Positions 3,313 to 47,014 of a stretch of 64,000 nt of DNA are shown one piece after another. The DNA comes from Clostridia bacterium (GTDB lineage Bacteria > Bacillota > Clostridia > Christensenellales > DTU072). Made by a program: the position numbers and the translations under genes. Below the pieces are notes generated by a model that worked only from the letters and a program-made list of their open reading frames with translations, ran no database searches and had not been told where the DNA came from. The number at the start of each line of letters is the position of its first letter. Within the stretch, counting starts at the first letter, position 1. Location of the stretch: positions 13,562 to 77,561 of the forward strand of contig JAFVRJ010000001.1 in NCBI GenBank assembly GCA_017504305.1, in the 5' to 3' direction.

Positions 3313-4181
3313 TACGCCCCCTTGTACTCGATGCGGTCGAGCTTCTTGATGCCACCATCCAATACGTATACTTCAAACCTATCGCTATACTCGTGTATGA
3401 GCGTATTTGGTTCGACGGCAGACATATAAATTTTAGGTTCTTCTTTGGGCACTTGGACCTCCCTTTCCGATTGCATATAGTCGAATTTGGGTGTTCCGTA
3501 TGCTCCGTTTAGGTTTCCTAAATAATCGTTTTGCGATGATCTAACGGGAGAGTATCCGTCATCGTAAACTTCTTCCGACAGATCGAGCGTAGGGTTATAT
3601 TCACCCCTATAACCGCTTCCTGCGCGGTCGTACGGCGCGCTACTATATGCACGCTCTATCGCTTGATCACGGAGCTTTTCTTCGAGTTTACGTTCCGCCC
3701 TTATTTCATAAAGGCGTTGTTCTTCCTCTCTTACGCGTTCCTCTCGCTCGAGCTCCTCTTGCTTGAGTTCTTCGCGCCTTCTTTCATACTCCTTGCGGGT
3801 TTCGTCGCCAAGTTGGGCGTAACGACGGCTTTCTTTGCGGTAGTTTTCCTCCGCCTTTTTAGCTTCCTTTTCGCTCGACTTGAGCTTTTCCTTTTTCTTC
3901 TTGCGGTGTTCTTTGGTGCTTATCCTATGCGCTATTACAAACGACAGCAACACCGAAAAACCAAATCCGATAAGGTACAACGTGGGATATAATCCGCCTG
4001 CAAAGGGGTTGAAATCCCATATCAAATTGAGTATTGCGCCAAACGCTGCGTACACCAAGGCAACGGAAAATAGCTTACCTATGGTAAGTACTATTTTCGC
4101 TATTATCTTTGCAATCATAATGATAACTTCCGTTACCGCTTTGAGTGCGCCGAGAATTATGCCTGATTGTACCGGTAGCAT
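3312..4181 (-). CDS. hypothetical membrane protein with a long charged (K/E/R) coiled-coil segment
   Basis: Two or three N-terminal TM helices are followed by about 100 aa of an EKLK/EERR-rich region. I recognise no family. Confidence 0.5.
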   Translation of the reverse strand: MLPVQSGIILGALKAVTEVIIMIAKIIAKIVLTIGKLFSVALVYAAFGAILNLIWDFNPFAGGLYPTLYLIGFGFSVLLSFVIAHRISTKEHRKKKKEKLKSSEKEAKKAEENYRKESRRYAQLGDETRKEYERRREELKQEELEREERVREEEQRLYEIRAERKLEEKLRDQAIERAYSSAPYDRAGSGYRGEYNPTLDLSEEVYDDGYSPVRSSQNDYLGNLNGAYGTPKFDYMQSEREVQVPKEEPKIYMSAVEPNTLIHEYSDRFEVYVLDGGIKKLDRIEYKGA

Positions 4182-9330: not shown

Positions 9331-9455
9331 TTAAAACTCGCAAATTGGCGACCTCCTTAAAAAAGCGTACTTATTGCTCGGTCATTTACATAGGTAAACT
9401 CTCGTCGCAATTTCGCACGCCTTTTGTCGTATCTCATCCAATTTGCGAGTTTTAA
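9331..9455. repeat. 125-bp element bounded by perfect 18-bp inverted repeats (MITE-like; related to the array units)
   Basis: TTAAAACTCGCAAATTGG at 9331-9348 is the exact reverse complement of 9438-9455. The interior contains AGCGTACT and GGTCATTTAC, which resemble the conserved loop words of the repeat family. Confidence 0.7.
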
Positions 9456-9585: not shown

Positions 9586-9958
9586 ATATGGACCACAAAG
9601 AAGCAAGCAAGACGAATAAATACAAAAAACCACAACGAGAGCGTGTTTGACGTACGTGACTTGTAGAGGGCTTTGATTTTGTGGTGTATTGCGGTGCCCA
9701 TGCGTGGGATTAGACCGCGTAGAAGCAAGCAAGACAAATAAATACAAAACCCCACGACGGGAGTGTACTTGAACGTACATGACCGAGTGAGGTTTTTCTT
9801 GTTTGGGAAGATTGCGAGGTTTGTGCGTGGTATTAAACCGCGTAGAAGCGAGCAAGACGAAGAAAACGGCGCACTCCCCGATATGAGCGTACTTGGTCGT
9901 ACGTGATTGAGGGGGTGCGCCTGTTTGATGCAGTATTGCGAAGCTTATCCGCGGTTTA
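9586..9958. repeat. tandem array A of the ~123-bp hairpin repeat family (3 units plus degenerate remnants upstream to about 9500)
   Basis: Unit starts are TGGACCACA 9589, TAGACCGCG 9711 and TAAACCGCG 9834. All share GAAGC(A/G)AGCAAGAC and GAG(C/T)GT(A/G)(C/T)T-N4-CGTAC(A/G)TGA(C/T) cores. The array ends in the inverted copy CCGCGGTTTA at 9949-9958. Confidence 0.9.
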
Positions 9959-11777
9959 AAACGGCTTTGATACGACGCACACCCGCCGAAGAACTTTGCT
10001 CTTTTTGAATTTTGAACTTGCCGAGTTCGGAAGTCTTGGATGCATGAGGTCCGCCACAGATTTCCTTGCTGTAGGTGCCGATGGAGTAAACTTTTACGAG
10101 CTCGCCGTAACGATCACCGAATACGCCGATAGCGCCTTGTTCACGAGCCTTTTCAACAGGCATTTCTTCGCAAGTAACGGGGATATCGGATGCGATAACT
10201 GCGTTAACTTCATCTTCAACGGCCTTGATTTCTTCAGGAGTCAAGGGGCGAGAGAAGTTAAAGTCTACACGGAGTCTTTCAGAGGTGATGTTACTACCCT
10301 TTTGCATAACGGTTTCGTCGTTCAAAACCTTGCGGAGAGCTGCAAGCAAAATATGGGTTGCGGTGTGGTAGTTGGTGGTTGCTTCGTTTTGCTCGGTAAG
10401 ACCGCCCTTTGCAGCTTGAGCTTGTGCCTTGGAAAGTTCTTGGTGTGCTTTGAATGCTTCGTTAAATCCCTTTTCATCAACGGTCAAACCTCTTTCGTCT
10501 GCAAGCTCGATGGTTAGCTCGAGGGGGTATCCGAAGGTGTCGTATAATCTAAAGGCTTGTTTGCCGGAAATCTCGGTTTCGGGTACGTAACTCGGGTCTT
10601 TTTGGGACATAAACTCGTTCTTACGTTGCATACCGGAAATAATTTTTTCGAACTCTTTCATACCGCCGGCAAGGGTAACTTCGAACTTTTTAATCTCTTT
10701 GGTGATCTCATCTAAAATGTAATCTTCCTTTTCTACAAGGAGGGGATAGGCTTCGTCGTAAATCTTTTCGATAAAGATTTTAGCAACTTCACACATCTCG
10801 GTTGCGGGGATGCCGAGATTCTTTGAGTATCTGATAGCACGGCGAAGAAGTCTTCTCAAAATGTAGCCTGCACCGGTGTTGGAAGGAACGATTCCGTTGA
10901 CGTCACCGATAAGCATAACAGCAGTTCTCGTGTGGTCCGCGATAATTCTCATCGCCTTGGTATCCGCTTCGTTTACGCCGTATGCTTTGCCCGATGCGCT
11001 CTCTAAATGAGCGATAGCACCTGCAAAAAGGTCGGTCTTGTAACCATCGTCCAATCCGTTTAAGAAGAGAAGCAATCTATCAAGACCGAAGCCGGTATCA
11101 ACGTTTTTGTTCTCGAGTTCTTCGTACTTACCGCCTTCAAGTTTCTTGTATTGCATGTAAACGTCGTTGCCGATTTCAACGTATCTGCCACAATCACAGT
11201 TAACGTCGCAAGTGTCACAGCAAGGATTATCGTGACGGGGATAGAACCACTCGTTATCAGGTCCGCAAGGAGTGCCTACGGTACCTTCGAGTTCCCACCA
11301 GTTATTGGATTTATCTAAATAGAAAATGTTTTCGTCCTTGATGCCGAGTTCTTTGAGGTAGGATGCCGTTTCTTCATCGCGAGGAGCAGCGTTATTGCCC
11401 TCGAAAACGGTGGAGCAAATCTTGTCCTTATCAAATCCGAATACTTTTGTCAAAAGTTCAAACGACCAAGCGGTTTTTTCCTTTTTGAAATAATCGCCCA
11501 AACTCCAGTTACCCATCATTTCAAAAAAGGTAAAGTGGGTAGCATCGCCAACGGAGTCGATATCAACCGTTCTTACGCAACCTTGAACGTTGCAAAGTCT
11601 GGTGCCCATGGGGTGCTTTTTACCAAGAAGATAGGGCATGAGCGGTTGCATGCCGGCAACGTTAAACATTACGCCGGTAGTACCGTCGCCAATAAGCGAA
11701 ACTGCACCGATATTGGTGTGGCCTTTGCTTTCGTAAAACTTAATCCATTTTTCTCTTAATTCTTTTGATGTAATCAT
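9945..11777 (-). CDS. alaS: alanine--tRNA ligase, short form (610 aa; catalytic, tRNA-recognition and editing domains; no C-Ala domain)
   Basis: Motifs FTFFEMMGNWSLGDYFK, DTGFGLDRL, editing HTATHILLAAL and CGGPH. The protein ends ...AGVRRIKAVLNRG right after the editing domain. Confidence 0.9.
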   Translation of the reverse strand: MITSKELREKWIKFYESKGHTNIGAVSLIGDGTTGVMFNVAGMQPLMPYLLGKKHPMGTRLCNVQGCVRTVDIDSVGDATHFTFFEMMGNWSLGDYFKKEKTAWSFELLTKVFGFDKDKICSTVFEGNNAAPRDEETASYLKELGIKDENIFYLDKSNNWWELEGTVGTPCGPDNEWFYPRHDNPCCDTCDVNCDCGRYVEIGNDVYMQYKKLEGGKYEELENKNVDTGFGLDRLLLFLNGLDDGYKTDLFAGAIAHLESASGKAYGVNEADTKAMRIIADHTRTAVMLIGDVNGIVPSNTGAGYILRRLLRRAIRYSKNLGIPATEMCEVAKIFIEKIYDEAYPLLVEKEDYILDEITKEIKKFEVTLAGGMKEFEKIISGMQRKNEFMSQKDPSYVPETEISGKQAFRLYDTFGYPLELTIELADERGLTVDEKGFNEAFKAHQELSKAQAQAAKGGLTEQNEATTNYHTATHILLAALRKVLNDETVMQKGSNITSERLRVDFNFSRPLTPEEIKAVEDEVNAVIASDIPVTCEEMPVEKAREQGAIGVFGDRYGELVKVYSIGTYSKEICGGPHASKTSELGKFKIQKEQSSSAGVRRIKAVLNRG

Positions 11778-16651: not shown

Positions 16652-18727
16652 TTATGTTGCCGGTTTTGCGACCATAATTTCGCCAGCCTTGGTTGCACTC
16701 ACTTCTTCGTCGTTTAACGTATATAACTTCCAGCCTTCGGGAAGAAGGATGTTTGAAAGCTCTAAATTGTCGTACGAAGGCATAATATTGAAGCTACTTC
16801 CGGCATAATCCCATATGACGATAAAGGCGTCGTTTGTTCCAAAAACAACGGGGATTTCTTGATAAGAGCCTGCAAACGCATATTCCGTGCCCTCAAACTT
16901 TACGGTGTCGGCAGATGCATAAATGGCAACGCCATAGTTTACGCCTTCGAGCGTTCCGCCTTTTATCGTAAGCGTGCCGGAGTTGTTAACGGCAACGTCG
17001 TTAATGCCTATGAGTTTACCTCCGTTCATCGTGAAGACTGATGCTTCTTCGTTGGCAACGGTCATATATCCGGCGCCAGTTATGGTTCCGCCGTTCAAGA
17101 TGAGCGTGCCTTGATTTTTGATGGTGGTATTGTTGGTGCTTGTAATCGTTCCGCCGTCAACGGTTATGGTGCCGTCTAAATTGTGTATTGCGTTACTCGT
17201 GCCGTCGATAGTTCCGCTCTTGAGGGTTAGCTCTCCGTAGTTCATTATTGCCCAATCGCCCGTGCCTTTGATTGTACCGCCACCAATAGTAATGTTAGCG
17301 TTATTTTGCATTACGTATGAGCCCGTACCCGAAAGGGTATAGCCTGCAAGGTCAAAGTTGATGGGTTGATCTGCCGTGGCGTGAACGATGCTTGCGCCGA
17401 TATTAATATTTGCACCGAGGGTTACGTTACCGCCCTTTTGTAAAGCTTTTTGAAGCTCTTCGTAGGTATCGATAACTCCGTCGTCAACGATTTCCTCTTT
17501 AGCTATTATAGTTTCCTCTGCTTGGACCGTTTCGATGGCTTCGTCGTCATAATCATAGAGCGCCCAGCCCTCGGGGAGTATTACGTTAGAAAGAGGCATG
17601 AAGCTCGTTGCCGGTACGATTTTAAAGCTTTCGCCCTCAAATTGAGATATGTCGATACGCGCCTCGTTTGCATACCAACGTACGGGAGCGGTAAGACTAA
17701 TAAGATTTAGGTTGCCACCGACAAATTTTACCTTGCCACTAATTGCAAGAACGGCATAAGAACCGCTGATAGTTCCGTTAGCAACTGTCAACTCGCCTTC
17801 GTTGATGATTAAAGTGGTTGCGGTGCCCGAAAGAGTATAACCGGCTAAATTGAAGTTTGCCACAACGCCTGAAGGCACGTGAGCGCTTTCTATACCGAGA
17901 TTGATATTTGCGCCGAGGGTTACGTTACCGCCCAGCTCAAGTGCCGCTTGCAAGCCCTCGGCCGTCAAAACGAGGTAGGTATTGGTATCTCTATAGTAAA
18001 TATAACCGAACGAATACGGGCAGTTATCGCAAACGCCGTCTTCGTTGAAGTCTTCGTGGTTGGGTTTAGCCTCAATTGCTATTTGGCTACATGAGATACA
18101 ATATTCTGCAGTGGTGCAATCATCGTCTCCTACTTGAGGAGTGTGGGCTGGCTTCGCCTCAATCAGTACCGTGGGACAGTAAACGCATACTACCGCGGTA
18201 GTACAATCGTCGTCATCGCTTTCTTCTACGTGTTGGGGCTTGGCATACGTTAAGATAGTGGGGCAGTGGCTACAAGTTATTGCCGTGGTGCAATCGCCGT
18301 CATCCTCGTTTGCAATGTGGTTGTCCTTTGCCGGAGTAATTACCGTATGGCAAACGTTACAAACGGTAGCAGTGGTGCAATCGCCATCGTCAAGTGTCGG
18401 GACGTGGTCGGGGTTTGCATGAACTATTACCTCACCACATTGCTTGCAAGTTATTGCCGTGGTGCAATCGCCGTCGTCATCCATCGGGGAGTGTCCGGAG
18501 GAAGGTTCCCCGACTGTACCACAATTATTGCAAATTGCAGGATTGTTGCAGTCTGCCGGCTTCCATTGGTGAGATACCGCTCTACCTTGACCGCAAGAGT
18601 TGCAAGTTTCATCGCAATCATTGTCGTATACGTGGCTACAATCGGTCTCGCCACAAGCCGTTAAGCATAACGTTATGCATAGCGCAATAGCGCACGCTAT
18701 AAAAAGTGCCTTTAGTGTCTTTTTCAT
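16652..18727 (-). CDS. Cys-rich surface lipoprotein: five ~29-aa C3H repeats plus two beta-helix-like Gly/Thr-rich modules
   Basis: Lipobox LCLTAC. Repeats follow the pattern H-x5-DDGDCTTA-x2-C-x2-C (for example DDGDCTTAITCKQCGEVIVHANPDH). This is followed by duplicated segments of the type GGNVTLGANINxG...LAGYTLSGT. Confidence 0.7.
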   Translation of the reverse strand: MKKTLKALFIACAIALCITLCLTACGETDCSHVYDNDCDETCNSCGQGRAVSHQWKPADCNNPAICNNCGTVGEPSSGHSPMDDDGDCTTAITCKQCGEVIVHANPDHVPTLDDGDCTTATVCNVCHTVITPAKDNHIANEDDGDCTTAITCSHCPTILTYAKPQHVEESDDDDCTTAVVCVYCPTVLIEAKPAHTPQVGDDDCTTAEYCISCSQIAIEAKPNHEDFNEDGVCDNCPYSFGYIYYRDTNTYLVLTAEGLQAALELGGNVTLGANINLGIESAHVPSGVVANFNLAGYTLSGTATTLIINEGELTVANGTISGSYAVLAISGKVKFVGGNLNLISLTAPVRWYANEARIDISQFEGESFKIVPATSFMPLSNVILPEGWALYDYDDEAIETVQAEETIIAKEEIVDDGVIDTYEELQKALQKGGNVTLGANINIGASIVHATADQPINFDLAGYTLSGTGSYVMQNNANITIGGGTIKGTGDWAIMNYGELTLKSGTIDGTSNAIHNLDGTITVDGGTITSTNNTTIKNQGTLILNGGTITGAGYMTVANEEASVFTMNGGKLIGINDVAVNNSGTLTIKGGTLEGVNYGVAIYASADTVKFEGTEYAFAGSYQEIPVVFGTNDAFIVIWDYAGSSFNIMPSYDNLELSNILLPEGWKLYTLNDEEVSATKAGEIMVAKPAT
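18050..18505 (-). repeat. in-frame 87-bp tandem coding repeats (C3H modules)
   Basis: GGTGCAATCGCC(G/A)TC recurs at about 18288, 18375 and 18462, an 87-bp period that corresponds to the DGDCTTA repeats. Confidence 0.7.
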
Positions 18728-20013: not shown

Positions 20014-23000
20014 CTAAACCGTTTCGTAAACAACTTCTATTGCCGTAACTTTTGCTTGACCATTGGTTTTTGTTCCCGTATTACCAACGCCAAACGTAAT
20101 AGATGTTGAATTTACCTCCACTATGGTTCCAGAGCTTACATTAGAACCATTATACGTTAAACACCCTGTGTTTGAAACGTTATATGTTATTTTAACCGAA
20201 ACTATTTTATATCCTTCCGCGACTTCTATTTTGAAACTCGGTGATTCCGTTTGGTATAGCCTGTACTCAGAACCACTATCGTAGTACTTACCAGTATTAT
20301 CTTTGCCACTTGAGGTTACGGTTACAACATCATCTAATTTAAATGAACTATATTTATTAGAATTAGACCAACCGTTTTCCGTCTTTAAAGTTGCGATGGT
20401 TTTGTTTACGGTTGTCTTTACCCCGGCGGGTGTTTCAGGTTCAGACGATCCCATATCCTTATCGCAAGTATCGCACTTGTTGTCGGAATCGTTATCTGCG
20501 TGCTCGCCGGTTGCAGGGATTTCTTCGCCACCTGAAATATAGTTTCCGCAATCATTACACCAAATACCAGCGGTTATGCCAGCCTCAATACAGGTAGGTG
20601 CAACTTCTTCCTTTTCTTCGGTGTTTTCGTGTTCGCCGGTTGCAGGGATTTCTTCGCCACCTGAAATATAACTTTCACAATCATTACACCAAGTACCGGC
20701 CTCTCTTCCTTCTTCAGCGCACGTGGGAGCTTTATAGGCATCTTCTCTTACGTCAGTATGCTTGCAAGGTGGAGCAATATAAATTACTTCGATTGCGGTA
20801 ATACGAACTTGACCATTTGTTGCCGTGCCGGTATTACCTACTCCAAAGGTAATAGTTGTATTGTTAACGTTAACTACACTTCCCGACGTTACGTTGTTAC
20901 CATTGAGCGTTAGGATGCCGGTCTTGTCTCTGCTATACGTTATCTTAACCGAAACGATACTACCACTACCACCCTCTGCCACAGATAGCGTTAAGGCAGG
21001 ATTTTCGGTTTGATAAAATCTCCAGTTGGTACCGCTTGTATAATATTTACCGGTATTTCCACCGCCTTTAGCCGTTGCTGTAATGTTTTTATCAATATTT
21101 ACAGCTTCGTATTTTGTGTCGTTTGCCCAACCAGTGGCATCGGCATAGTCTGCGATAGTTACGTTTACCGTCTTCTTCGTCGAGGCACAAGTGGGGCAAA
21201 CGTTACCTTGAGTAAAGTCGTGGTCTTTTTTACTATCAGCTACAACGTGGCCACAGCCTTCGCGCTTGCAATAAGCATCTTGCATGCAAGTTGCTTCAAC
21301 CATATCGTGACCAAGAGCAGAGTCTTCTTCAACGTAACCACAGCCTTCGCGTTGACACTTGGCATCTGTAACACAGTCGCCAGTTGTCATATCGTGACCA
21401 AGTGCGGGAATCTCGGTTTGAGCGACTAAAACCTCGTTGCATACCGAGCAGTGCTTGCCTTCGGTAAGACCGCTTTCAGTACAAGTTGCGGCTACGGCTT
21501 GGTCGACAACTTCAGAGTGACCATTCTTTGGAACTACGTTGTCCGTCTTTGTTCCATTACATAAAGTGCAAGTATAAGTGGTGTAGCCGTCTGCAGTACA
21601 AGTAGGTGCGGTTACTACGCCATCATCATACTCGTGATCGCTTACTATGTAAGCGCCCTCAACAAGCAAGCTGTGAACACCTTCTACAAGCTTATTGGTA
21701 TAGGTGCCGTCTCCTTGATGGTTTGCAGGGTTGAACGCTACGTACTCACCGCCGTATACGTTGATTTCTGCCCAAATCTCTTCATCTTCACCTTCCCAAA
21801 TATCAAGGGTGTAAAGGTATCCGTAGCTATTATCTTCCGCAACGAACTTGCCATCGAAAACGTTGATTACGGAGTTGGTGCGTGCGTAAATAGTGGTGCA
21901 TCCGGATGATACGTATTCGCCACCATAGATGTTGACGGTTGCGCCGTCAATAGCGGAAAGTACGCATACCGTTTGGGCTTCACTGTGTGTTGCCAAGAGT
22001 TTGCCGTCGCCGTTAATATTAAACGTTACGTCGCCTTGTACGAGGAATACGTCACAAACGGACTTTGTGCCGACTACAGACTCGGTGCTCTTTGCAACGT
22101 TAGATGTAATGGTCTTACCATTGAGGTATAAGGTTGCATCTTTAGTGATGGTAATAACGCCATTGTCAAGAGTGATATTGTCTTCCAAAATAACCGCGTA
22201 GCCACCACCGTTGAGGACGGCCTCAAGGTCGGATGCATTGGATACTGCAATGGTTGCAGTGTTATCAACGTCATCTAATACTTGAGAAGTTCCGCAGGCG
22301 CACTCTCTAACGAGCTTTAATACGCCGTCGATGATTTGATAAGACTTGATATTGTGGTTGTGATTGAGTTTAGAAATAGGACGGGTTACAACGTGGGTTG
22401 CATCGTTTGCGCAAACTTGCTTTTCTTCACCTTCTGAAGTGCAGGTTGCAGGGGTTACTACTTCCCATGCGCCATATTCGTGAGCATTTTCATCGACGTC
22501 AACGTAATTGTCTTTTATTTCGTGACCACAACCACAAGTATAAGTGGTATAACCTTGTGCCATACAGGTGGGTGCGGTTACTACGCCAGTATCGTAATTA
22601 TGACCAGTAGCATCAATAGGCTCGGTCTTGGTGTGTGCGCTATCGTTTGCGCACTCGTAACCCATAGTGCCTTCAGTAGTACAGGTAGGCTCTAAAATAA
22701 CGCCGGTTTCTTGCCAATCGTGACCGAGCTTTGCTTCGGTGTAATCACAATTATCGCGCTTGCAATAACCATCATTTTCGCAATCAGCTTCTACCATATC
22801 GTGGCCAAGAGGATCACCAAAAGTAAAGGTGCTGGAAAGGTTTTCGTCATGTTCGCCACATACGCAAGAAGTGTAATATACGGCTCCCGATTCGCAAGTT
22901 GCCGGAGCCTTAAGGTGCTTTTCTTCTGCATTTCTATTCTCGTAGTTGTGGCCTGCAGGCTCGCCTACTTCAAAGGTTTTCGAAAGGGTTTCATCAAAAG

Positions 23001-23730
23001 CTCCGCAAACGCAAGACTTGTAGTAGATTGCACCGAAAGTGCAGTTTGCTCCGCTCTTTAAGTACTCGTCGTCAACCTTTTCTTGATCGTAAACGTGGTC
23101 TTTAAGTTCACCGTATGCGTTACCGCAAACAGCGCAAATTGCAAGCTCATCACAACGGTTACTGCCACCTGAACAAGCTTCGGTTATTACGTGGCTATCA
23201 TCGTTAGCGCATACCTTTTTGTGGTTGCCGTTTTCGCCTTGAATCCACTCGCCGTATGCGTGTCCTACCGCACTCACTTCTTCAGTCTTTGTATGGCTAC
23301 CGTCGTTTAAGCAGGTATAGGTTTTAACGCCCGTTCCCTCACAGGTTGGTGCGGTGGTTACCTTGCCTTCATCCCAACTGTGTCCAAGAGCAGGTATTAC
23401 CGTACCTTCCTCTTGATAATCACAACGAGAGCATCCTAGCTTGCCAGTGAATCCTTCCCCTTCGCAAGTAGCGCTAATACCGCTATTGTCTTTAACAACG
23501 AGATCGTGACCAAGAGGCTCGATATCAACTTGTTGGCTCTTTCCACATACCGAACATCTTTGGAGTGCTTTGCCGGACTCTGTGCAAGAAGCCCCTCCCA
23601 TTACTATCTCGTTTTCCCAAACGTGCTCGGTGCATTGTTCTCCCTCTAAATCAACGGGGGAACAGGCACTAATAGTAAGTGCGAGCGCGCCAATTAGAAC
23701 GACTACCAAGATAATTAAGCGACGTGACAT
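20014..23730 (-). CDS. giant Cys/His-rich surface lipoprotein (about 1238 aa) with many GH-x-C-x-C modules, a beta-helix-like middle and two C-terminal ~125-aa repeats
   Basis: Start at 23730 (AAGGAGAA RBS; MSRRLIILVVVLIGALALTISAC lipobox). Modules of the type LGHSWDEGKVTTAPTCEGTGVKTYTCLNDGSHTKTEEVSAVGH recur. There is a duplicated domain TVN(V/K)TIA...NTGKYY.SG...R.YQTE.P...V.(S/G)VKITY. Confidence 0.7.
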   Translation of the reverse strand: MSRRLIILVVVLIGALALTISACSPVDLEGEQCTEHVWENEIVMGGASCTESGKALQRCSVCGKSQQVDIEPLGHDLVVKDNSGISATCEGEGFTGKLGCSRCDYQEEGTVIPALGHSWDEGKVTTAPTCEGTGVKTYTCLNDGSHTKTEEVSAVGHAYGEWIQGENGNHKKVCANDDSHVITEACSGGSNRCDELAICAVCGNAYGELKDHVYDQEKVDDEYLKSGANCTFGAIYYKSCVCGAFDETLSKTFEVGEPAGHNYENRNAEEKHLKAPATCESGAVYYTSCVCGEHDENLSSTFTFGDPLGHDMVEADCENDGYCKRDNCDYTEAKLGHDWQETGVILEPTCTTEGTMGYECANDSAHTKTEPIDATGHNYDTGVVTAPTCMAQGYTTYTCGCGHEIKDNYVDVDENAHEYGAWEVVTPATCTSEGEEKQVCANDATHVVTRPISKLNHNHNIKSYQIIDGVLKLVRECACGTSQVLDDVDNTATIAVSNASDLEAVLNGGGYAVILEDNITLDNGVITITKDATLYLNGKTITSNVAKSTESVVGTKSVCDVFLVQGDVTFNINGDGKLLATHSEAQTVCVLSAIDGATVNIYGGEYVSSGCTTIYARTNSVINVFDGKFVAEDNSYGYLYTLDIWEGEDEEIWAEINVYGGEYVAFNPANHQGDGTYTNKLVEGVHSLLVEGAYIVSDHEYDDGVVTAPTCTADGYTTYTCTLCNGTKTDNVVPKNGHSEVVDQAVAATCTESGLTEGKHCSVCNEVLVAQTEIPALGHDMTTGDCVTDAKCQREGCGYVEEDSALGHDMVEATCMQDAYCKREGCGHVVADSKKDHDFTQGNVCPTCASTKKTVNVTIADYADATGWANDTKYEAVNIDKNITATAKGGGNTGKYYTSGTNWRFYQTENPALTLSVAEGGSGSIVSVKITYSRDKTGILTLNGNNVTSGSVVNVNNTTITFGVGNTGTATNGQVRITAIEVIYIAPPCKHTDVREDAYKAPTCAEEGREAGTWCNDCESYISGGEEIPATGEHENTEEKEEVAPTCIEAGITAGIWCNDCGNYISGGEEIPATGEHADNDSDNKCDTCDKDMGSSEPETPAGVKTTVNKTIATLKTENGWSNSNKYSSFKLDDVVTVTSSGKDNTGKYYDSGSEYRLYQTESPSFKIEVAEGYKIVSVKITYNVSNTGCLTYNGSNVSSGTIVEVNSTSITFGVGNTGTKTNGQAKVTAIEVVYETV

Positions 23731-23949
23731 ACCCTTTTCTCCTTTGTGAGTATTAAAAAACCACAGGCGCAGTGTGCCTGTGGTCATAGAGTTAGTTTTG
23801 TGCGGTTGAAAGAGTATCCATTTGGAAACGGAAACAATGCATGCGTTTTAATCGTAAAAAGCAATGCTTACCCACCTCGATACTCCTTCCTCAACGATGT
23901 ACTATATAAAGTATAACAACTATAGTATTATAAAGCAAGTAAAAGTTAC

Positions 23950-26512: not shown

Positions 26513-26893
26513 TATAAGACCGCGGAGAAGCGAGCAAGACAAACAAAAATAAAAAGCCCCCAATGGGAGCGTACTAATACGTACGTGACCTGCAGGGTGC
26601 TTTTATTTGGTTATGATATACTGCGATAATCATATGCCGTCGGTTAGACCGCGGAGAAGCAAGCAAGACAAAGAAAAGGGCGCAGCCACGACACGAGCGT
26701 ACTTGACGTACGTGACCTGCAGGGAGCTTTTATTTTGTGAAGTATTGCGATGGTTATATCGGCCGATTAGACCGCAGAGAACCGAGCAAGACAAACAAAT
26801 ACAAAACCCCACGACGGGAGTGTACTACGACGTACATGACCGAGTGGGGCTTCTGTTTATTTGTGAAGTATTGCGATGGTTATATGCGGTCTA
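26513..26893. repeat. tandem array B of the hairpin repeat family (3 units; periods 129 and 123 bp)
   Basis: Unit starts are TAAGACCGCGG 26515, TAGACCGCGG 26645 and TAGACCGCAG 26768. The array ends with the inverted GCGGTCTA at 26886-26893, whose CTA is the complement of the M20 gene's TAG stop codon. Confidence 0.9.
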
Positions 26894-28324
26894 CTTGTAA
26901 GAGCGTATAAACTCTTTATAAAAACAAACACACTCGCCTACGTTCCAAACCTTAATATGCTCGTTGGCATTGTGGATGGTGGCGTATTGCTTGGAATCAA
27001 GGTCTATGGGAGCAAAACGAAGGATGGCGTCGGCTACGTCGCCAAGGTGGCGAGCATCGGTGCCGGCAGTTAAGATGAAGGGCGAAACTATTACGTCGGG
27101 GAAGTTTTTGTTAAGGACGGCTTTAAGCTTCTTAAACTGCTCGGAATCCACCTTTGAGGGCACGCAATAGTCACGTTCGGTTTCCCTAACTTCGACATTG
27201 TACTTCTTGGCAATCTCTTTAAAAGCTTCGATTTCCTTGTATAGAGTATCTTCCCTAATGCATCTGAAGAAGGCGGTTGCCTTTGCTTCAAGCGAAGTGC
27301 CTTCGATCTTTGTAAAGCTCATGGTCGTCGATAGCATTGCGCCTGCAACGGGGCTTACTTTACCCATAAGGTTAAGGAGTAGCTTTTTGAAAATGCAGAA
27401 GTTACTAAAGACAATCCTTAACGGATAAGGCATATACGGGGCGTGGGTGCGGAAGGTCGCTTCCACCTCGGGAGCAAAGCCCTTTTTGAATATCTTGCTA
27501 TCTTTGACTTCAGAAATGAAAGCGGAAAGATTATCGATAGCGTTTTCTTTGGTGGGGTTGAGACCTACGTGGCCCTTTTCACGCTTGGTGGCAACGCACT
27601 CGTAACGATGACGTCCCTTTTCGTGGACGGCTACCATTGCGCTCTTTTCCTTGACACCGGGCATCATCTTCTCGGTGATAGCTCCGCCCTCGTCAAGAAC
27701 TACGTCAAAGTGAAGACCTCTTTCCAAAAAGTATTTGTGGACCTTGGGGAATCCGTCACCGGCAACTTCTTCGTTGTTGGACGATCCTATAAAGACGTTA
27801 ATACCCTCAAAGTCGTATCCCTCTTTGAGAAGCTCCTCAACCGCCATAAGCTCTGCAAAAAGCGGTGTCTTGGTGTCGATGGTCCCCCTGCCGTACATCG
27901 CTCCGTCAACGACTTTAGCTTCAAATGCGGGATGCTCCCACTCCCCTTCATCGATTACTACGTCGTGGTGGGACATCAAAAGAATATTCTTTACGGCGTT
28001 TTTACCGCTTATTTCGTATAGAAAACAGCCGTCAAAATCGTGCTTAACTGCCTTTGCGGTTAAAGTGGGAAAACGATCTTCCAATACTTTATAGAATTTT
28101 TTGTACTCATCGGCATAAGTTCCTTGCTCGTCGTAAACGGTTTTGCAACGGATCATGTCGGCAAGAACTTCAGTATATTCTTTGAGTTTTTCTTCCGAAA
28201 CGTTTTTGCGGGTAGCGTTTACCGTGACGCGAGCTCTACTCGAAAGAAGGGCTTTTATGAGGATATACGCTAAAAATATAACGGTGCATCCGCCAATAAC
28301 GGAGCCGACAATTATACCGCCCAT
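26891..28324 (-). CDS. M20 family metallopeptidase with N-terminal membrane anchor
   Basis: LLMSHHDVV, GRGTIDTKTPL and SSNNEEV(A)GDG motifs match the ArgE/DapE/CPG2-like family. An N-terminal TM helix is present. Confidence 0.8.
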   Translation of the reverse strand: MGGIIVGSVIGGCTVIFLAYILIKALLSSRARVTVNATRKNVSEEKLKEYTEVLADMIRCKTVYDEQGTYADEYKKFYKVLEDRFPTLTAKAVKHDFDGCFLYEISGKNAVKNILLMSHHDVVIDEGEWEHPAFEAKVVDGAMYGRGTIDTKTPLFAELMAVEELLKEGYDFEGINVFIGSSNNEEVAGDGFPKVHKYFLERGLHFDVVLDEGGAITEKMMPGVKEKSAMVAVHEKGRHRYECVATKREKGHVGLNPTKENAIDNLSAFISEVKDSKIFKKGFAPEVEATFRTHAPYMPYPLRIVFSNFCIFKKLLLNLMGKVSPVAGAMLSTTMSFTKIEGTSLEAKATAFFRCIREDTLYKEIEAFKEIAKKYNVEVRETERDYCVPSKVDSEQFKKLKAVLNKNFPDVIVSPFILTAGTDARHLGDVADAILRFAPIDLDSKQYATIHNANEHIKVWNVGECVCFYKEFIRSYK

Positions 28325-41631: not shown

Positions 41632-44130
41632 TTATTGCGGTAACTCTACAGCACACTCCATTTGGAAGGAGTCTGCTTCGCCGTTAGCGGTGGTTACTGC
41701 GATAAGAGTGCTGGTGGATACAGGGATCTCGATGTAGTAAACGCCATTTGCAAGCGTACCTGAAGTAACTTGGTCGGCAAGCGTTGCTTCGTAATCTTCA
41801 TTGGTATCCGTATAGAAACTGATGACTGCGTTAGCATCGCTGATATATACGTAGTATGTTTCAATTTTACTACCTGTTTCAACACCTGCGTTTAAGCTAT
41901 AGTATACGGTTGCGCCTGCATTAACGTTGACGGTTACGCCTGCTTGGGGAGGTGCTTTTATGCCTGCTTCCCAAACGTAAGGAGCGTTTGCAGAGCCGTT
42001 ACGAACAAGTTTAAAGTTGTAGGAGCAATCATAGAATTCTTCGTAGTCGTTCTTACTAAAGCTTACGTACTCTTCCATTTTGGTGTAGCCTTGAGGAACG
42101 GCACCGTTATCAACGCCTACTACATAGTAACCGATGGGACGCTCGTTGAGAGTAAAGATTGCATAACCTTCGGCATTGGTTAAAGCGGTTTCGTGGATGG
42201 TGTAGGTACCACCGTTTGCAATATAAACGGTTACCTCTACGTTAGCAATGGGGGTGCCCTCTGCTGCTACCAATACCTTATGTTCCGCGGTGGTATCTTC
42301 ATAGGTAATGGAGAAGTTGACAATACCATCGCCAACAACTACTACTTCGATAAGATCCTCTGCAAAGAATACGCCGGAAGCCTTTTCTTCGCCGTTGATT
42401 TTGAAGGAAACGTCATCGGTGCTTGCAAGGGTAACTCTGCCGTTAGCGGGCATTGTAAAGGTATAGTAAACTTCACCGGTCTTGATGTTTGGTGAAACAC
42501 TGGTGGGATCACTATCGTTAACGCTTACTTCATAAGGATAAGCTTTAGTGCCCTCTTTAATTACTACTAAATCGATACCGTCAACGCCTAAATCGGCAAG
42601 AGCGGTAATCTTGAGGATGGCGGTTTCGCCTGCATCTTCTTCGAGCGAGATTTGGAACTCGTCGTTTACAACGTCGTACTCGTAGGTGTCGCCGTTGTAA
42701 AGGATGCTAATGAGGTTGGTCGCGGTCTTAACGTGGGTATCTACTGCATTGGGGATAGCAACGTAGACCACTTCGCCCTCGTTGAGTTTAACGTTAAACT
42801 CGCCGTACTCGGTAAGATACAAGGGAGCGTTTGCGCTGGAGCCTTGATCTAAAGCGTCGTTAATATTGATAATACCGGTGATGATGGTGTTCTTGGTGAA
42901 GTTGATAGCGGAGTAGCTGGATCCGTCTTGGAGACCGTTAAGGACTGCTATGTAGTTGCCGTAGGGAGCCAAGATGGTTGCAACACCTGCTTCAACGTCC
43001 GCAGAAGCAACTTCGTTCAAGCTATAATCGTATAGGGAAACGGAAAGTCCATTGTAACCGAGTTGGGGGTTGGTACGAGATACGTTTACAACGTAGCTAA
43101 CTTGAAGCATCTTCATGAATTGAACGCTTACGTTAGTGGTGGTAATTTGTTGAGTGCCTTGATCGTTCTTACCTAACCAAAAGTACTCGGGGTTGCCATC
43201 TTTGTGAGTTGCTACGAGGTAATAGCTATCTTTTACCATACTTAAAGTGAAGGTACCGCTTGCATCGGTGATTTCTTCTTCAACGAGGGTGCCTTGCTTA
43301 TTGTAGACGGATATTTTAATATCAGCCATAGGATCACCACCGAACATATTGGTTACAGAGAAGGTGTAGTTCTCTAAAAAGCCTGCAACGGTAAGGGTTT
43401 CTTCATAGTCGCCCTCATCAAAGTTGAAGTGGGTAACGCCAAGCTCGATGCCGGGAAGAACGGTGTATACGTTGGGGAGGGAGTTGATGGTAATGTAACC
43501 GGCTCCGTTAAGTTGTGTTTTAAAGGTGGTAACGCCGTTTTGGTCGGTAACTTGGGGAAGTAAGCAGTTTCCGCCGATACATACTTGAACTTCTGCGCCT
43601 TCAACGCCGTAGCCGTCGGTATCCTTGAGGATTACTTTGTAATTGTAGTAAACCACTTTAACGATATCGTCAATTACGAGGGAAGTAGAGTTTTTAGCAA
43701 ATTGATAGGGAGCATCGTCGTAATCGTAATCTTCTGGGGCGCTTAAAATAAGAACCTCTTGGAGCTTACCGGGAACGATGCGGAAGGTAGCTTTACCTTG
43801 AGCATCGGTGGTTTTGGTTTCGCCGTTTTTGGTGTCGACTCTGATTTGAACGGAAGCGCCGACTACGGGATTGCCGGAGGTGTCCTTGAGGGTAACGAGG
43901 TACTCGGTTTTGCCGTCGCCTGCGCCGGTATTGCCACCGTCGGTGTTACCGCCGTCAGTGTTACCGCCGTCGCCGGCAGGGGTCATATCGGTAGAACAGT
44001 TATCGCATTTAAGATCGCCGTTAGCGTCAACGTGCTCGGTGCATTTATTGGAGCAAGCAACGAGAGCACACGCCATAACGACTACTAATAAAAGAGAAAC
44101 TATTAAACTGCACTTTTTGAAAGATTTCAT
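41632..44130 (-). CDS. paralogous surface lipoprotein 1 (832 aa): EHVDANGDLKCDNC module, (GGNTD)n linker and multiple CarboxypepD_reg-like beta-sandwich repeats
   Basis: Start at 44130 (AGGAGG RBS). Lipobox ALVAC. N-terminal CTEHVDANGDLKCDNCSTDMTPAGDGGNTDGGNTDGGNT. Segments of the type YxVxLKDTxGxPVxGAxVQ recur. Confidence 0.7.
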   Translation of the reverse strand: MKSFKKCSLIVSLLLVVVMACALVACSNKCTEHVDANGDLKCDNCSTDMTPAGDGGNTDGGNTDGGNTGAGDGKTEYLVTLKDTSGNPVVGASVQIRVDTKNGETKTTDAQGKATFRIVPGKLQEVLILSAPEDYDYDDAPYQFAKNSTSLVIDDIVKVVYYNYKVILKDTDGYGVEGAEVQVCIGGNCLLPQVTDQNGVTTFKTQLNGAGYITINSLPNVYTVLPGIELGVTHFNFDEGDYEETLTVAGFLENYTFSVTNMFGGDPMADIKISVYNKQGTLVEEEITDASGTFTLSMVKDSYYLVATHKDGNPEYFWLGKNDQGTQQITTTNVSVQFMKMLQVSYVVNVSRTNPQLGYNGLSVSLYDYSLNEVASADVEAGVATILAPYGNYIAVLNGLQDGSSYSAINFTKNTIITGIININDALDQGSSANAPLYLTEYGEFNVKLNEGEVVYVAIPNAVDTHVKTATNLISILYNGDTYEYDVVNDEFQISLEEDAGETAILKITALADLGVDGIDLVVIKEGTKAYPYEVSVNDSDPTSVSPNIKTGEVYYTFTMPANGRVTLASTDDVSFKINGEEKASGVFFAEDLIEVVVVGDGIVNFSITYEDTTAEHKVLVAAEGTPIANVEVTVYIANGGTYTIHETALTNAEGYAIFTLNERPIGYYVVGVDNGAVPQGYTKMEEYVSFSKNDYEEFYDCSYNFKLVRNGSANAPYVWEAGIKAPPQAGVTVNVNAGATVYYSLNAGVETGSKIETYYVYISDANAVISFYTDTNEDYEATLADQVTSGTLANGVYYIEIPVSTSTLIAVTTANGEADSFQMECAVELPQ

Positions 44131-44287: not shown

Positions 44288-44557
44288 ATATAGACCGCGA
44301 AGAAGCAAGCAAGAGGAATACAAATAAAAAGCCCCCAATGGGAGTGTACTTTGCGTAAATGACCAAGTGGGATTTGCTTGTTTGTGAAGTATATCGCTAA
44401 AATTATTAAACTGCTAAACCGCATAGTTTAGATGATAGACGAACAAAAATAAAAATCCCCCAATGGGAGCGTACTACATCGTACGTGACCTGCAGGGGGA
44501 TTTTATTTTGTGATGGATATCGCTAAAATATGCGGTTTAGCTAAAATATGCGGTTTA
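44288..44557. repeat. array C of the hairpin repeat family (one full unit, one 5'-deleted unit, duplicated terminal segment)
   Basis: TAGACCGCGAAGAAGCAAGCAAGAG begins at 44291. The second unit has a perfect stem AAAATCCCCC/GGGGGATTTT. The terminal CTAAAATATGCGGTTTA is duplicated (44524-44539 and 44541-44557). The final TTA is the complement of the TAA stop of the 466-aa gene. Confidence 0.85.
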
Positions 44558-45955
44558 ATTGAAGTAATAGCAGGCAAACAACCACGCATCCTCCTCCACA
44601 ATACCTAAAGCGTTAGTGCCGAAAATGTGGGTTTCGGATTCAAGATCCCACCAGCCGTAATAGTCGCCGTAGAGTTGGATGCCATCTTTTAAGCCTTGAG
44701 TGAGGGGGTAAAGACCGTCTTCACCAACTACTTCCAAAATATCTAAAAGGTATTGGTGATAGGATTGCTTGCGAACGAAGTTACCTTCTTCATCGTAAAC
44801 GTAACAGCCAAAGCGGGTATTGGCGGTGAGGTGCTCAAACGATACCCAGCCACCTTCAGGGATGTTGTCGGGGATGTCGTTTAACAATACGTAAAGGATG
44901 GGACCGTCTATAGAATTAAGGTGATAGTAGCCGTCGTTCTCGTTATACACTGCGGTTACGTTGGTGTGAATATCTACGTTGGTGAGGGTTCCACTCTCGT
45001 TTATAACAACTTCGGTGGGAGCGGTTTCGGGTACGTATTCAATCCACGGTTCAGTCGAAGGATCCCATGCAAGGTCACCCACTCTTTCAATCAAAAGGGT
45101 GCCCGTTCCGTTACCTATGATACCCTGAACAGAGAAAACTAATTTTGTGGTGGATGCTTCGATTTCTGCATCGGTAACGCCGGAACCAATGTATTGAGCT
45201 TTAACGGTATAGTTGAAAGACGCCCTATCAATGCGGTCTTCTTCTTCGCAAATATCCTCTTGAACGTAATCGGTTATTCCGCATGAATTAAGCTTTACGC
45301 CGGTGTTTGCAACGTAGCTTATTTTATATTCGCCGGACTCGGAGGGAATCCATACAAAGTAGGTTTTAGCTGTAGTTGTAAACGTCGAGCGGAAGCCACC
45401 GATGCCTCTTACAATATAGCCGTTCGGGCGCTCGTCACCAATACCTGCGAGCATTAGCGATACGGTTTCATCTTCCGATACCTCGCCGTAAAGGGTAACG
45501 GTGGACTCTACTACATCTGCAGTAAGAGTGCAAGCACTTTCGTCATAGTAATAGGTGTCGCCGGTAAAAGTTAAAGTATAGGTGTAGCTATCCTTTACCA
45601 ATCTGATTTGAGCTTTGCCTTCGTTATTGGTGGGCTTGCTTCCCGCCTTCACTTCGCCTTTATAGAAAGATACTATAACGTTAGGCATAACGTTGCCGAC
45701 TGCATCTTTGACGGTTACGGTGTAAGAGGTTTTGCCGTCGTCTACGTCGGTGTTTCCGCCATCGGTATTGCCACCGTCAGTGTTTCCGCCATCGCCTGTA
45801 GGGGTCATGTCGGCAGTGCAGTTGTCGCACTTAAGATCGCCGTTAGCGTCAACGTGCTCGGTGCAAGGCTCGTCGGCATTACAACCGATAAGTGCAAAAC
45901 TCAAGGTGCTAACTACCAATAGGATAACTAATATCTTGGTTAATTTTTTGCTCAT
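44555..45955 (-). CDS. paralogous surface lipoprotein 2 (466 aa)
   Basis: Lipobox ALIGC. N-terminal CTEHVDANGDLKCDNCTADMTPTGDGGNTDGGNTDGGNT. One beta-sandwich segment, then a C-terminal module (DGYYHLNSIDGPILYV...WLFACYYFN) shared with the 958-aa paralog. Confidence 0.7.
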   Translation of the reverse strand: MSKKLTKILVILLVVSTLSFALIGCNADEPCTEHVDANGDLKCDNCTADMTPTGDGGNTDGGNTDGGNTDVDDGKTSYTVTVKDAVGNVMPNVIVSFYKGEVKAGSKPTNNEGKAQIRLVKDSYTYTLTFTGDTYYYDESACTLTADVVESTVTLYGEVSEDETVSLMLAGIGDERPNGYIVRGIGGFRSTFTTTAKTYFVWIPSESGEYKISYVANTGVKLNSCGITDYVQEDICEEEDRIDRASFNYTVKAQYIGSGVTDAEIEASTTKLVFSVQGIIGNGTGTLLIERVGDLAWDPSTEPWIEYVPETAPTEVVINESGTLTNVDIHTNVTAVYNENDGYYHLNSIDGPILYVLLNDIPDNIPEGGWVSFEHLTANTRFGCYVYDEEGNFVRKQSYHQYLLDILEVVGEDGLYPLTQGLKDGIQLYGDYYGWWDLESETHIFGTNALGIVEEDAWLFACYYFN

Positions 45956-46039: not shown

Positions 46040-47014
46040 TTATTGTTGTTGTAGCTCTATTATTTGCTCAACGCTTGTAAAGGTGCGTTGAACGTAGTTC
46101 TCGGCGGTAAAATAACTAAAGATTGCTTCCACTTCTTCTTGGCTGTCAAGTGTTCCAAATATACCGCAAACCACACCGTAACGGTCAACCAATACCGAGG
46201 TGGGATATCCTGTTCCGTTGAACACGTTAAAGTAAGAGGTATCTGCTTTTGCTACGTCGAAGGTCAAGCCCTTTTGCGCTTTAAAAGAGGTGATTTCCGA
46301 TAAAGTATCGCCACTCGAAGTATCGAGTGCGATAATGGATACTTTGTCGGAATAATTTGCGTACGCCGAATTGATATAGGGGAATTCCTTTACACAGAAG
46401 GTGCAGTTGATATACCAGAAGTTTATGAGTACGAAGTCCTTGCTCTCAAGTTCCTCGCTTAATTTGAAGCTACTGCCGTCCGTTGTGATAAAGCTAAAGT
46501 CGTGCATTACGTCACCGAGGCGGTAGCGGGTGGGTAGGGTTGTATCGCTTATAACTTTAGAGGTTAATACGACGTCCGCGCGTTTGTTGGTAAAGGTGTA
46601 ATAATCTTCAACAACGTATCCCTCGGGCGCGCCTTCTGCTATCTTGATGCAGTAACTGTCGCTTACTAAAATCTCGGCGGAATCTTCTCCGTTAGCATCT
46701 GTGGTAAACGGTCTTATTACCTTACTGAAGGTGTTGTCGGCATAAAGTTCTACGATGGCGCCTACTACGGGCTTGCCCCCTATCGTCTTGATACTTACGG
46801 TGTAGGTCGCTTTGGTGGGTGCGTCGTCTTTACTTGCAGTATCGTCGTTACCGTCGGTATCGCTATCGGGCGCAGTCAGCTCGATATCGCACTCGTCGCA
46901 CTTCAAATCGCCGTTAGCATCAACGTGGGTGTGTTCCTTTTCGCATGCACAAAGTGCTAAAGTCATCGCTAAAGCAAGTATTGCAATTATAATTGTTGTT
47001 AGAAGTCTTTTCAT
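46040..47014 (-). CDS. paralogous surface lipoprotein 3 (324 aa) with C-terminal thioredoxin-fold (TlpA-like) domain, atypical CTFC active site
   Basis: Lipobox LALCAC. HTHVDANGDLKCDECD. A beta-sandwich segment, then FVLINFWYINCTFCVKEFPY...GYPTSVLVDRYG, the redoxin fold pattern. Confidence 0.75.
   Translation of the reverse strand: MKRLLTTIIIAILALAMTLALCACEKEHTHVDANGDLKCDECDIELTAPDSDTDGNDDTASKDDAPTKATYTVSIKTIGGKPVVGAIVELYADNTFSKVIRPFTTDANGEDSAEILVSDSYCIKIAEGAPEGYVVEDYYTFTNKRADVVLTSKVISDTTLPTRYRLGDVMHDFSFITTDGSSFKLSEELESKDFVLINFWYINCTFCVKEFPYINSAYANYSDKVSIIALDTSSGDTLSEITSFKAQKGLTFDVAKADTSYFNVFNGTGYPTSVLVDRYGVVCGIFGTLDSQEEVEAIFSYFTAENYVQRTFTSVEQIIELQQQ

Follow-up and report, generated by a model that had tools for sequence, protein, structure and literature searches.

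A palindromic intergenic repeat family at the stop codons of genes in a clade of uncultured gut Clostridia

This study revealed that a family of palindromic intergenic repeats of about 125 nt lies at the stop codons of genes in uncultured gut Clostridia far more often than expected by chance, and that the same arm of the repeat faces the gene in every stop-adjacent case. The repeats were analyzed in a stretch of 64,000 nt of contig JAFVRJ010000001.1 (assembly GCA_017504305.1 of a Clostridia bacterium, positions 13,562 to 77,561 of the forward strand; G+C 44.7%), hereafter referred to as the window. It contains three intergenic arrays with units of about 123 nt, each flanked by two minus-strand genes of the same direction. 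Array A (9588-9959) separates alaS from secA, array B (26515-26893) separates the gene of an M20 peptidase from that of an MFS transporter, and array C (44290-44557) lies between two genes for Ig-like (Big_1) proteins. When read in gene orientation, the arrays start with TA[AG]ACCGC and the units end with the inverse, GCGGT[CT]TA. Taken as a whole, these observations are probably best explained by an undescribed ~125-nt palindromic intergenic family of the REP, BOX or miniature inverted-repeat transposable element (MITE) kind, present in a clade of uncultured gut Clostridia and arising through the mechanism set out below.

An initial annotation of the window, made from its letters, had claimed that the stop codon of the upstream gene lies inside the repeat at all three arrays, and both the open reading frame (ORF) calls and a direct reading of the sequence bear this out. 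The M20 peptidase gene (26891..28324, minus strand; Pfam Peptidase_M20) reads ...TAC AAG TAG, and the terminus starts with its TAG (26893-26891), the first three letters of TAGACCGC (26893-26886). The gene for a 466-aa Ig-like (Big_1) protein (44555..45955, minus strand; weak Pfam matches to Big_1 and Big_3_5), which the initial annotation had called a lipoprotein, reads ...TTC AAT TAA; here, TAA 44557-44555 is the first triplet of TAAACCGC (44557-44550), which belongs to an extra 18-nt copy placed before the first unit of the array, C1. With regard to alaS (9945..11777, minus strand), the sequence is GCC GTT TTA AAC CGC GGA TAA, in which TAAACCGC (9958-9951) is out of frame. The stop in use is the TAA at 9947-9945 (minus strand), within a conserved ATAAGC box 9 nt inside the first unit, A1, and the three preceding codons, AAC CGC GGA (N-R-G), are element sequence. 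The annotation was therefore right that the stop and the end of alaS are element-derived, but it had counted five such codons, which does not agree with orthologs ending ...AVL[K/Q/E] or ...AVLVK, and it had given the first codon as GCT instead of GCC. It also missed the secondary frameshift of alaS onto the second TAA, as well as the variable-number behaviour of the arrays.

The ends of the M20 and Ig-like proteins are not affected by the repeat. Like the window protein, M20 orthologs with identities as low as about 55% have the ending ...FYKDF.KSYK*, and the orthologs of the Ig-like protein end ...AWLFACYYF[N/A]*. Judged by these alignments, the element is a replacement of the stop in register at both genes, with the protein unchanged.

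In order to define how general this association is, copies of the repeat were collected from one genome per GTDB species with a right-end pattern, which returned 23 stretches, 16 of them real copies according to a hidden Markov model built from the window units. A covariance model (R1) revealed further copies in L008 and L014, and ortholog look-ups gave more loci. The copies from the scan come from metagenome-assembled genomes (MAGs) of uncultured Clostridia, namely Lapin-032 bin61, Lapin-001 bin15, HAN106, Mgla_MAG_30 and two labelled Christensenella sp. With ORFs of at least 145 aa called mechanically from stop to stop, and orthologous sites counted once, an ORF was found to stop within -12..+12 nt of the left end of the element in 15 of 21 independent loci. 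The chance expectation, taken over all positions of the same loci, is 0.03, which gives a binomial P of 7e-19; at a generous null of 0.15, P is still 1e-8. The same arm faces the ORF in 15/15 stop-adjacent loci (two-sided P about 6e-5). The annotation's view that three out of three is unlikely by chance is thus supported, and the survey of copies that it had suggested revealed enrichment at stops, in one orientation.

Chance or ORF calling could also be invoked, given that a motif starting with TAA or TAG is itself a stop triplet and must terminate any ORF that reaches it in frame. Indeed, in the window subfamily the palindrome opens with TA[AG] and carries a second conserved TAA 9 nt further in, in a different frame, so that an ORF abutting a window-type element ends inside it. 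Nevertheless, this explanation is effectively refuted, as the M20 and Ig-like proteins end at the same residue as their orthologs, the orientation is fixed, and the family-wide enrichment persists even at the generous null.

The distance between stop and element differs between subfamilies. For window-type copies, the offset is 0 to +1 nt; for the Lapin-032, HAN106 and Christensenella-labelled types, the stop lies 8-12 nt before the first position of the model, and a short conserved spacer (e.g. CTNCCG) is present ahead of the palindrome. In the remaining 6/21 loci the copy is away from a stop. Three of these copies (L019, L028 and L021b) lie behind an ordinary terminator-like hairpin, one (L025a) behind other repeat sequence, and one (L014a) downstream of other repeats and of a copy that is itself at a stop, with an ATG about 12 nt further on. 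The sixth is a solo copy in the window itself (9334..9453, plus strand), a ninth copy that was not listed in the initial annotation. It belongs to another subfamily, has a perfect 18-nt inverted terminal repeat, TTAAAACTCGCAAATTGG, and scores 37.6 bits with the covariance model (E 4e-8). This copy has the opposite orientation and lies about 70 nt upstream of the secA start, just upstream of the secA promoter region, and is not at a stop codon.

The repeat unit is an imperfect palindrome of about 125 nt forming one long hairpin with 32 consensus pairs, as deduced from an alignment of 16 well-formed copies from the window and from other genomes. Unit sizes range from 121 to 132 nt, and the variation is compensatory in the helices rather than codon-like; the unit has no coding capacity. 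Intact units (A1, B1, C1 and the solo copy) carry perfect inverted terminal repeats of 9-18 nt. Both arms contain conserved imperfect boxes of about 26 nt (AACCGCR-TATAAGC-NN-CGCAATAC in the left arm, GTCTTGCTCGCTTCT-NN-GCGGTT in the right arm), and the apical hairpin, GGTCAYGTAC-loop-GTACRCTCC, is conserved as well. The sequence of the inner stem varies freely between copies, with pairing kept through compensatory changes. Overall, 94.9% of the helix cells are paired, and both-sided changes are found in 76 cells versus 24.4 in column shuffles, none of the 500 shuffles being as high; when the partner columns are slid by 1-3 positions, pairing falls to 31-49%. Only four cells are G-U, against nine A-C mismatch cells, and an A-C mismatch corresponds to G-U on the opposite strand. 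This paucity of G-U points to a palindrome upheld at the DNA level or on both strands, rather than as sense RNA alone. Together, the conserved arm boxes, the conserved apex and the lack of G-U point to recognition by a protein, e.g. a candidate transposase or recombinase acting on DNA.

No match to Rfam 15 was obtained in the window at gathering thresholds, nor on the units of L006, L012 and L029 at E up to 1, and no paper containing the conserved boxes as strings was found in a literature search. The repeat is new as a sequence family, and the phenomenon of repeats at stop codons is already known.

In the window subfamily, the stop codon is built into this structure. Bases 2 and 3 of the stop triplet form the outermost helix pairs, and the corresponding columns (3/130 and 4/129) covary, TA-A occurring with T-TA and TA-G with C-TA. 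Since these bases pair and covary with the right terminus, the stop triplet is a physical part of the repeat. In RNA folds, the UAG and the UAA lie within the basal helix of B1 and C1, respectively. A native stop codon outside the element boundary, which the annotation had named as a finding that would speak against its claim, was not seen in any comparison within the window subfamily. All intact units of this subfamily have TA at both ends, and this TA is indistinguishable from inverted-repeat sequence.

The alaS junction provides the best view of how a unit may reach a stop codon. The AlaRS (alanyl-tRNA synthetase) sequences of the clade finish in ...RRIKA[VI]L plus K, Q, E, R or VK, and the ending AVLNRG* is found in the window species only. 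In two sister species, a unit follows the stop directly: L001 (AlaRS 95% identical) reads GTA AAA TAA TCCCA..., and L005 (92% identical) reads ACT AAA TAA GGCCACGC.... The single relic hairpin after alaS in L001 has its best match in A2, the second unit of array A (78% identity over aligned columns), and this alignment begins at the TAA that follows A1 in the window, namely TAA 9835-9833, in which the right end of A1, GCGGTTTAA, finishes. The correspondence between this TAA and the alaS stop of L001 is in line with A1 having been inserted into the TA(A) of the former stop. Both A1 and the solo copy are absent from L001, with flanks that are not cleanly alignable as an empty site. The simplest history of the junction would comprise two steps. 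A1 would have entered the former stop at its TA(A), with ...GCGGTT-TAA-TACCACGC left distally, and a 5- or 8-nt deletion in the run TTAAAATAAACC would then have moved the frame onto the second TAA, resulting in the NRG* tail. The window AlaRS itself (610 aa; tRNA-synt_2c and tRNA_SAD as its only Pfam domains) has no C-Ala/DHHA1 domain and its C-terminus comes directly after the tRNA_SAD editing-domain motif (GVRRIKAV). Given that nearly all of the 120 homologs listed from related MAGs are 607-619 aa long, the short AlaRS is the native form throughout a clade and did not arise by truncation through the repeat.

We propose that a unit would be inserted at the TA of the TAA or TAG stop native to the gene, and that the first purine of the inserted unit would restore the stop, leaving the protein unchanged, which fits the M20 and Ig-like genes. 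New units would join on the gene-proximal side and older units would decay downstream, the size of the array would change by unequal recombination in the conserved cores, and, in this genome, the inner GC stem with its A-rich and U-rich flanks would let each unit act as an intrinsic terminator in both directions. The alaS comparison and the presence of TA on both sides of every intact window-type unit are in line with an insertion of this kind. In all window arrays, the unit next to the gene is intact (dG -47 to -53 kcal/mol, z about -7.4 to -8), and the distal units are degenerate (z +0.7 to -3).

Several observations weigh against this proposal. No clean filled-versus-empty pair was found, and the TA flanks may be plain inverted-repeat sequence. 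In the other subfamilies, the copies have no TA flanks and the stop, which may be TAA, TAG or TGA, lies 5-9 nt outside the palindrome, and no target-site duplication is visible in the copies from other MAGs, which also have no U-tracts. Simple nested insertion into TA predicts an intact left terminus for the internal units, which they do not have. The deletion step at alaS is reconstructed rather than seen. The 17 window ORFs scanned include no transposase, and no parent insertion sequence (IS) was seen in the window. Finally, the sample is small, with 21 loci, all from MAGs or metagenome contigs. In a search for duplications in Lapin-032 and HAN106, the apparent target duplication AAT[G/T]ACTGC at L025 was rejected, as it is part of a neighbouring repeat module. 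The right-end scan of GTDB returned no locus from the window's own species; the metagenome scans gave no hit with a first pattern and one real copy (L043) among 18 with a second, and two viral scans gave none. Of the proteins at the two window edges, one had no record, and the loci obtained with the other extended hardly at all past the window. No longer element, which would be a candidate parent IS, turned up in the GTDB, metagenome and viral pattern scans.

The comparison of orthologous loci indicates that the units are replaced over time. At the M20 gene end of L030 (M20 69% identical), the sequence is TCG TAA TTTAGCGACC..., and at the Ig-like gene end of L053 (protein 72% identical) it is TTC GCG TAG ACCGC..., a B-type unit, versus TAA and a C-type unit in the window. 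The L053 units are 82-88% identical to array B, and closer to it than to array C, with flanking coding sequence that is 72% identical. This difference implies a turnover of units between loci at a junction that remains at the stop, and that the stop triplet travels with the unit type. It also speaks against a non-mobile origin, in which the units would be ordinary terminators of the lineage, with gene conversion keeping them alike, slippage expanding them in place and the overlap with stops reflecting compact gene ends. The homology of the L001 relic with A2, the clear alteration of the arrays by recombination and the occupation of orthologous sites in distant relatives are all in line with such an origin. 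Yet, units from unrelated loci and species share 82-88% identity over about 125 nt, the solo copy lies close to a promoter, at a site without a copy in the sister species L001, and U-tracts are absent from the copies in other MAGs. In addition, relatives with 83-85% identical AlaRS carry no copy in 22 kb each, which makes the family patchy. We consider a non-mobile origin very unlikely.

A more serious alternative is that stop adjacency results from selection on an RNA-level function and not from an insertion preference. The base of the hairpin, 0-12 nt past the stop, is within reach of the terminating ribosome; it may tune the upstream gene through ribosome stalling or trans-translation, or protect the 3' end of the upstream cistron, with copies elsewhere being lost or never fixed. 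In Escherichia coli, REPs close to stop codons reportedly cause ribosome stalling or trans-translation, a finding attributed to Liang, Rudd and Deutscher in 2015. In none of the 15 stop-adjacent loci is the helix more than 12 nt away from the stop, regardless of subfamily and stop codon; the orientation to the gene is fixed (15/15), and orthologous gene ends are all occupied at only 69-72% protein identity. Two copies that lie 20 nt before AAGGAG/GTG (L012) and about 12 nt before an ATG (L014a) also agree with an RNA-level role. In contrast, the sense strand shows no enrichment in G-U (4 G-U vs 9 A-C), unlike what a constraint on sense RNA only would give, 6/21 loci are away from stops, and selection alone leaves unexplained how near-identical units reach new gene ends. 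We regard this alternative as quite possible, although not as the more probable explanation. Insertion at the stop and selection on the stop-to-hairpin distance are not mutually exclusive: the former fits the alaS comparison and the TA flanks, and the latter fits a limit of 12 nt that holds in every subfamily and the occurrence of all three stop codons.

A bolder version of the insertion model is a mobile hairpin with stop codons as its targets: always in one orientation, it would enter either the TA of TAA/TAG or the position just 3' of any stop, its own first triplet would replace the stop, and arrays would grow by repeated gene-proximal insertion. If true, this would constitute a portable stop-plus-terminator cassette with target choice at the codon level. 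We know of no DNA-level mechanism for choosing stop codons as targets with codon-level precision, and we consider this version unlikely.

The known systems closest to this family include the GTAG-tagged REPs and REPINs of Proteobacteria and others (Di Nocera et al. 2013, PMC3733652), which are palindromic, lie mostly downstream of ORFs between unidirectional or convergent genes, often form clusters of units, and have termini that can supply TAG stops. The REPs described there measure 20-40 nt, carry GTAG or CGTC as an unpaired tag and are associated with RAYT transposases (PMC3733652). Like them, the Clostridia units are extragenic, with 15/21 loci directly at ORF 3' ends and several others after a terminator-like hairpin behind a gene. 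Unlike them, the Clostridia units are about 125 nt long, with arm boxes of about 26 nt and the terminus TA[AG]ACCGC, and the GTAG tag is not conserved, being found only in B-type units, where the preceding base is G. No gene for a RAYT (Y1 transposase) is present in the window.

The units could nonetheless be single-stranded DNA hairpins mobilized, as in REP/REPIN systems, by a RAYT-like tyrosine transposase, rather than IS-derived MITEs with TA duplication; the fixed orientation would then reflect strand-specific transposition of single-stranded DNA. The maintenance of the palindrome without G-U pairs, the asymmetric internal loops and boxes conserved across species, as in protein-recognized hairpins, and the lack of a convincing target duplication outside the window subfamily would agree with this origin, as would the left ends of B-type units, which read GTAG (AAG TAG ACC, GCG TAG ACC), similarly to the GTAG-REP termini that supply TAG stops (PMC3733652). 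However, the size of the units is far from that of REPs, GTAG is not conserved, the ends of A- and C-type units being TTAA, and Firmicutes and Clostridia go unmentioned in a REP survey. On balance, we find this origin unlikely.

In the pneumococcus, BOX elements (Croucher et al. 2011, PMC3049150) are modular, with a variable number of tandem boxB modules, and encode the stop codon of 36 genes without evident protein truncation. The same work describes SPRITE, which resembles a terminator and is enriched at coding-sequence 3' ends, and RUP, which has inverted terminal repeats like those of IS630-Spn1 (PMC3049150). The Clostridia family resembles BOX in its Firmicute host, its variable tandem number and its repeat-encoded stop. 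It differs in that its units have no evident sequence similarity to BOX and are complete palindromes arranged head to tail, not A-B(n)-C; its stop fraction (about 70%) and strict orientation appear stronger. The Coxiella MITEs QMITE1 and QMITE2 (PMC5896051) share 1-50 bp with the 3' ends of functional genes and alter or supply C-terminal residues and the stop, with little change in protein size. In contrast to the Clostridia arrays, QMITEs are dispersed single copies in a gammaproteobacterium, some of them encode basic peptides, and tandem arrays are not described.

Mycobacterial MIRUs, as far as they are summarized in PMC12548453, are short intergenic repeats, often tandem, variable in number and in register with the flanking codons; according to the same summary, they insert at start codons and their internal ORF is translationally coupled to the next gene. 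Coupling of the MIRU type was rejected for the Clostridia family, as 90-320 nt separate the end of an array from the next start codon and the hairpin units have no conserved ORF. An integron attC site was likewise rejected, since the R''/R' core consensus (RYYYAAC/GTTRRRY) is absent, GTCTAAC/GTTAGAC occurs at one junction only, and there are no cassettes, the flanking genes being alaS/secA, M20/MFS and Big_1. A type III toxin-antitoxin system or another RNA array acting on the downstream gene is not compatible with the genes found downstream (secA, MFS transporter and Big_1 protein), nor is a CRISPR-like array with units that abut without spacers. The terminal inverted repeats, the size of 121-132 nt (within the 50-500 bp class) and the absence of coding capacity are shared with MITEs. 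The family is thus best filed with the REP / BOX / MITE kind: it fails the REP size and tag, and it is neither attC nor MIRU.

The window subfamily also shares features with rho-independent terminators, namely a GC-rich stem and a U-tract directly after the ORF, in an A-/U-flanked bidirectional form. The inner GC stem lies between a 5' A-rich tract and a 3' T-/U-rich tract, as in an intrinsic terminator. Terminator-like sites were found on the gene strand in five of the eight array units (A2, B1, B3, C1, C2), and the three array regions contain 2, 3 and 2 terminator-like hits, where shuffled sequence leads one to expect 1.1, 0.6 and 0.6. Array B is followed by a promoter-like site for the MFS transporter gene, at 26453-26425. 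The arrays are read as hairpin terminators predicted at the ends of transcription units, in the subfamily of this genome. Ordinary terminators are not 125-nt repeats with arm boxes common to loci and species. The copy in L012, which has no U-tract, is on the same strand as a ribosome-binding-site-like AAGGAG with a GTG start, 20 nt before it, and this suggests, from the arrangement of the sites, that it may be co-transcribed with the next gene. Because of this copy and of the other-MAG copies without U-tracts, a terminator role does not define the family. The initial annotation had proposed either a target-site preference for stop codons or a combined stop and terminator cassette. The non-random, family-wide association with stops and the membership of the stop triplet in the repeat stood, and the terminator cassette fits only the subfamily of this genome.

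The arrays vary between strains of the window species. The alaS array has 3, 2 or 1 units with identical outer junctions, the M20 array 3 or 2 units, and the array at the Ig-like gene 2, 3 or at least 4 units. Units are also mosaic, those of strain L029 combining halves of A1, B1, B2 and B3. Unequal recombination within the conserved cores would give both chimeric units and varying numbers. Five of nine strain or ortholog contigs (L029, L051, L053, L054 and L055) end inside an array, as expected from a multi-copy repeat. One assembly has a gene of 40 aa annotated inside an array, on the opposite strand (L029 4080-4202), and in the window, ORFs of 106 and 132 aa run across array A.

All array units of the window are on the minus strand. 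In array A, the gene-proximal unit A1 (9833..9959) is an intact 125-nt palindrome (covariance model 113 bits; fold -52.5 kcal/mol, z -7.4). It is followed by A2 (9710..9832), with a degenerate left end, TACCACGCA (72.8 bits; z -3.0), and by A3 (9588..9708), the most degenerate unit of this array, with the right end TTGTGGTCCATA (43.5 bits; z -0.44). In array B, B1 (26767..26893) is an intact palindrome (117 bits; -52.7 kcal/mol, z -8.0). B2 (26644..26766; z -0.35) is a chimera: its left half is similar to a B3/C1-like unit and its right half to unit 1 of strain L029, and its inner stem is unpaired because the halves come from different unit types. The distal B3 (26515..26643; 71.7 bits) has the terminator-like GCTCCCATTGGGGGC followed by a T-run. 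In array C, an 18-nt copy of the left terminus of C1, TAAACCGCATATTTTAGC, lies at 44540..44557 ahead of C1 itself, so that 44522-44557 is a tandem repeat of TAAACCGCATATTTTAGC (x2; period 18, 2.0 copies, 100% matches). C1 (44414..44539) is intact, with a perfect 11-nt inverted terminal repeat, TAAACCGCATA (76.3 bits; -47.4 kcal/mol, z -7.8), and C2 (44290..44413) has a degenerate left end (44.2 bits over 44300-44406; z +0.66). The 18-nt duplication is not present at this junction in strains L049 and L051. At the M20 junction of the 98%-identical strain L029, an 11-nt tandem duplication, AAGTAGACCAC (x2), includes the last M20 codon (3931-3952). These junction duplications may be due to slippage at the base of the hairpin or may be the footprints of another insertion.

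Other forms of the repeat were observed in the other MAGs. Upstream of a guaA-like gene, orthologous sites of the two MAGs labelled Christensenella sp. (L008 2953-3007 and L026 177-299) contain one full unit and one 55-nt derivative, in which only both arm boxes are left and the central 70 nt are deleted. In the Lapin-032 MAG, the element is followed by further shared repeat modules (X: L006 2497-2720, L027, L019 and L028; Y: L024, L011 and L025), and the intergenic regions are mosaics of several repeat families. A module of about 220 nt (cacttcgtaaacagttcacaaaaatctcgg...) finishes there in a second copy of the right end of the element, CTCGCTTCTCCGCGGTT, as though its insertion into the element's right end had duplicated about 17 nt. 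In L006 (2809-2981, plus strand), some 300 nt downstream from the element, there is a sub-threshold Rfam match to Atu_C9, a Rhizobiales small RNA (27.7 bits vs gathering 40, E 8e-4), which is probably a chance match to a structured repeat.

With regard to the other genes of the window, a conserved stretch (43871-44043, 45693-45865, 49689-49861 and 46875-46927) was found near the 5' ends of four minus-strand genes, encoding proteins of 855, 466, 981 and 324 aa. In three of these genes the stretch includes periodic repeats of 12-15 nt (GTGTTACCGCCGTC-like), and at least three of these neighbours appear to form a locally expanded paralogous family of surface proteins; the ortholog of the 324-aa ORF has AhpC-TSA/Redoxin domains. 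Elsewhere in the window, an ORF of 691 aa (16652-18727, minus strand) without Pfam match contains five in-frame repeats of 87 nt (29 aa) at 18090-18481, and the adjacent ORF of 1257 aa (20014-23787, minus strand), also without Pfam match, has internal repeats of its own.

These results add to the poorly studied gut Clostridia a repeat family with a covariance model, conserved boxes and subfamilies, with about 70% of its loci at stop codons and a fixed orientation. The units break metagenome assemblies and seed spurious ORF calls, they alter C-terminal residues, as in the NRG tail of AlaRS, and their copy-number-variable arrays are markers for strain typing. The anchoring at stop codons is a feature common to REPs, BOX and QMITEs, and the sharp distance distribution in this Firmicute family would make it a good system for separating insertion bias from selection on the stop-to-hairpin distance.

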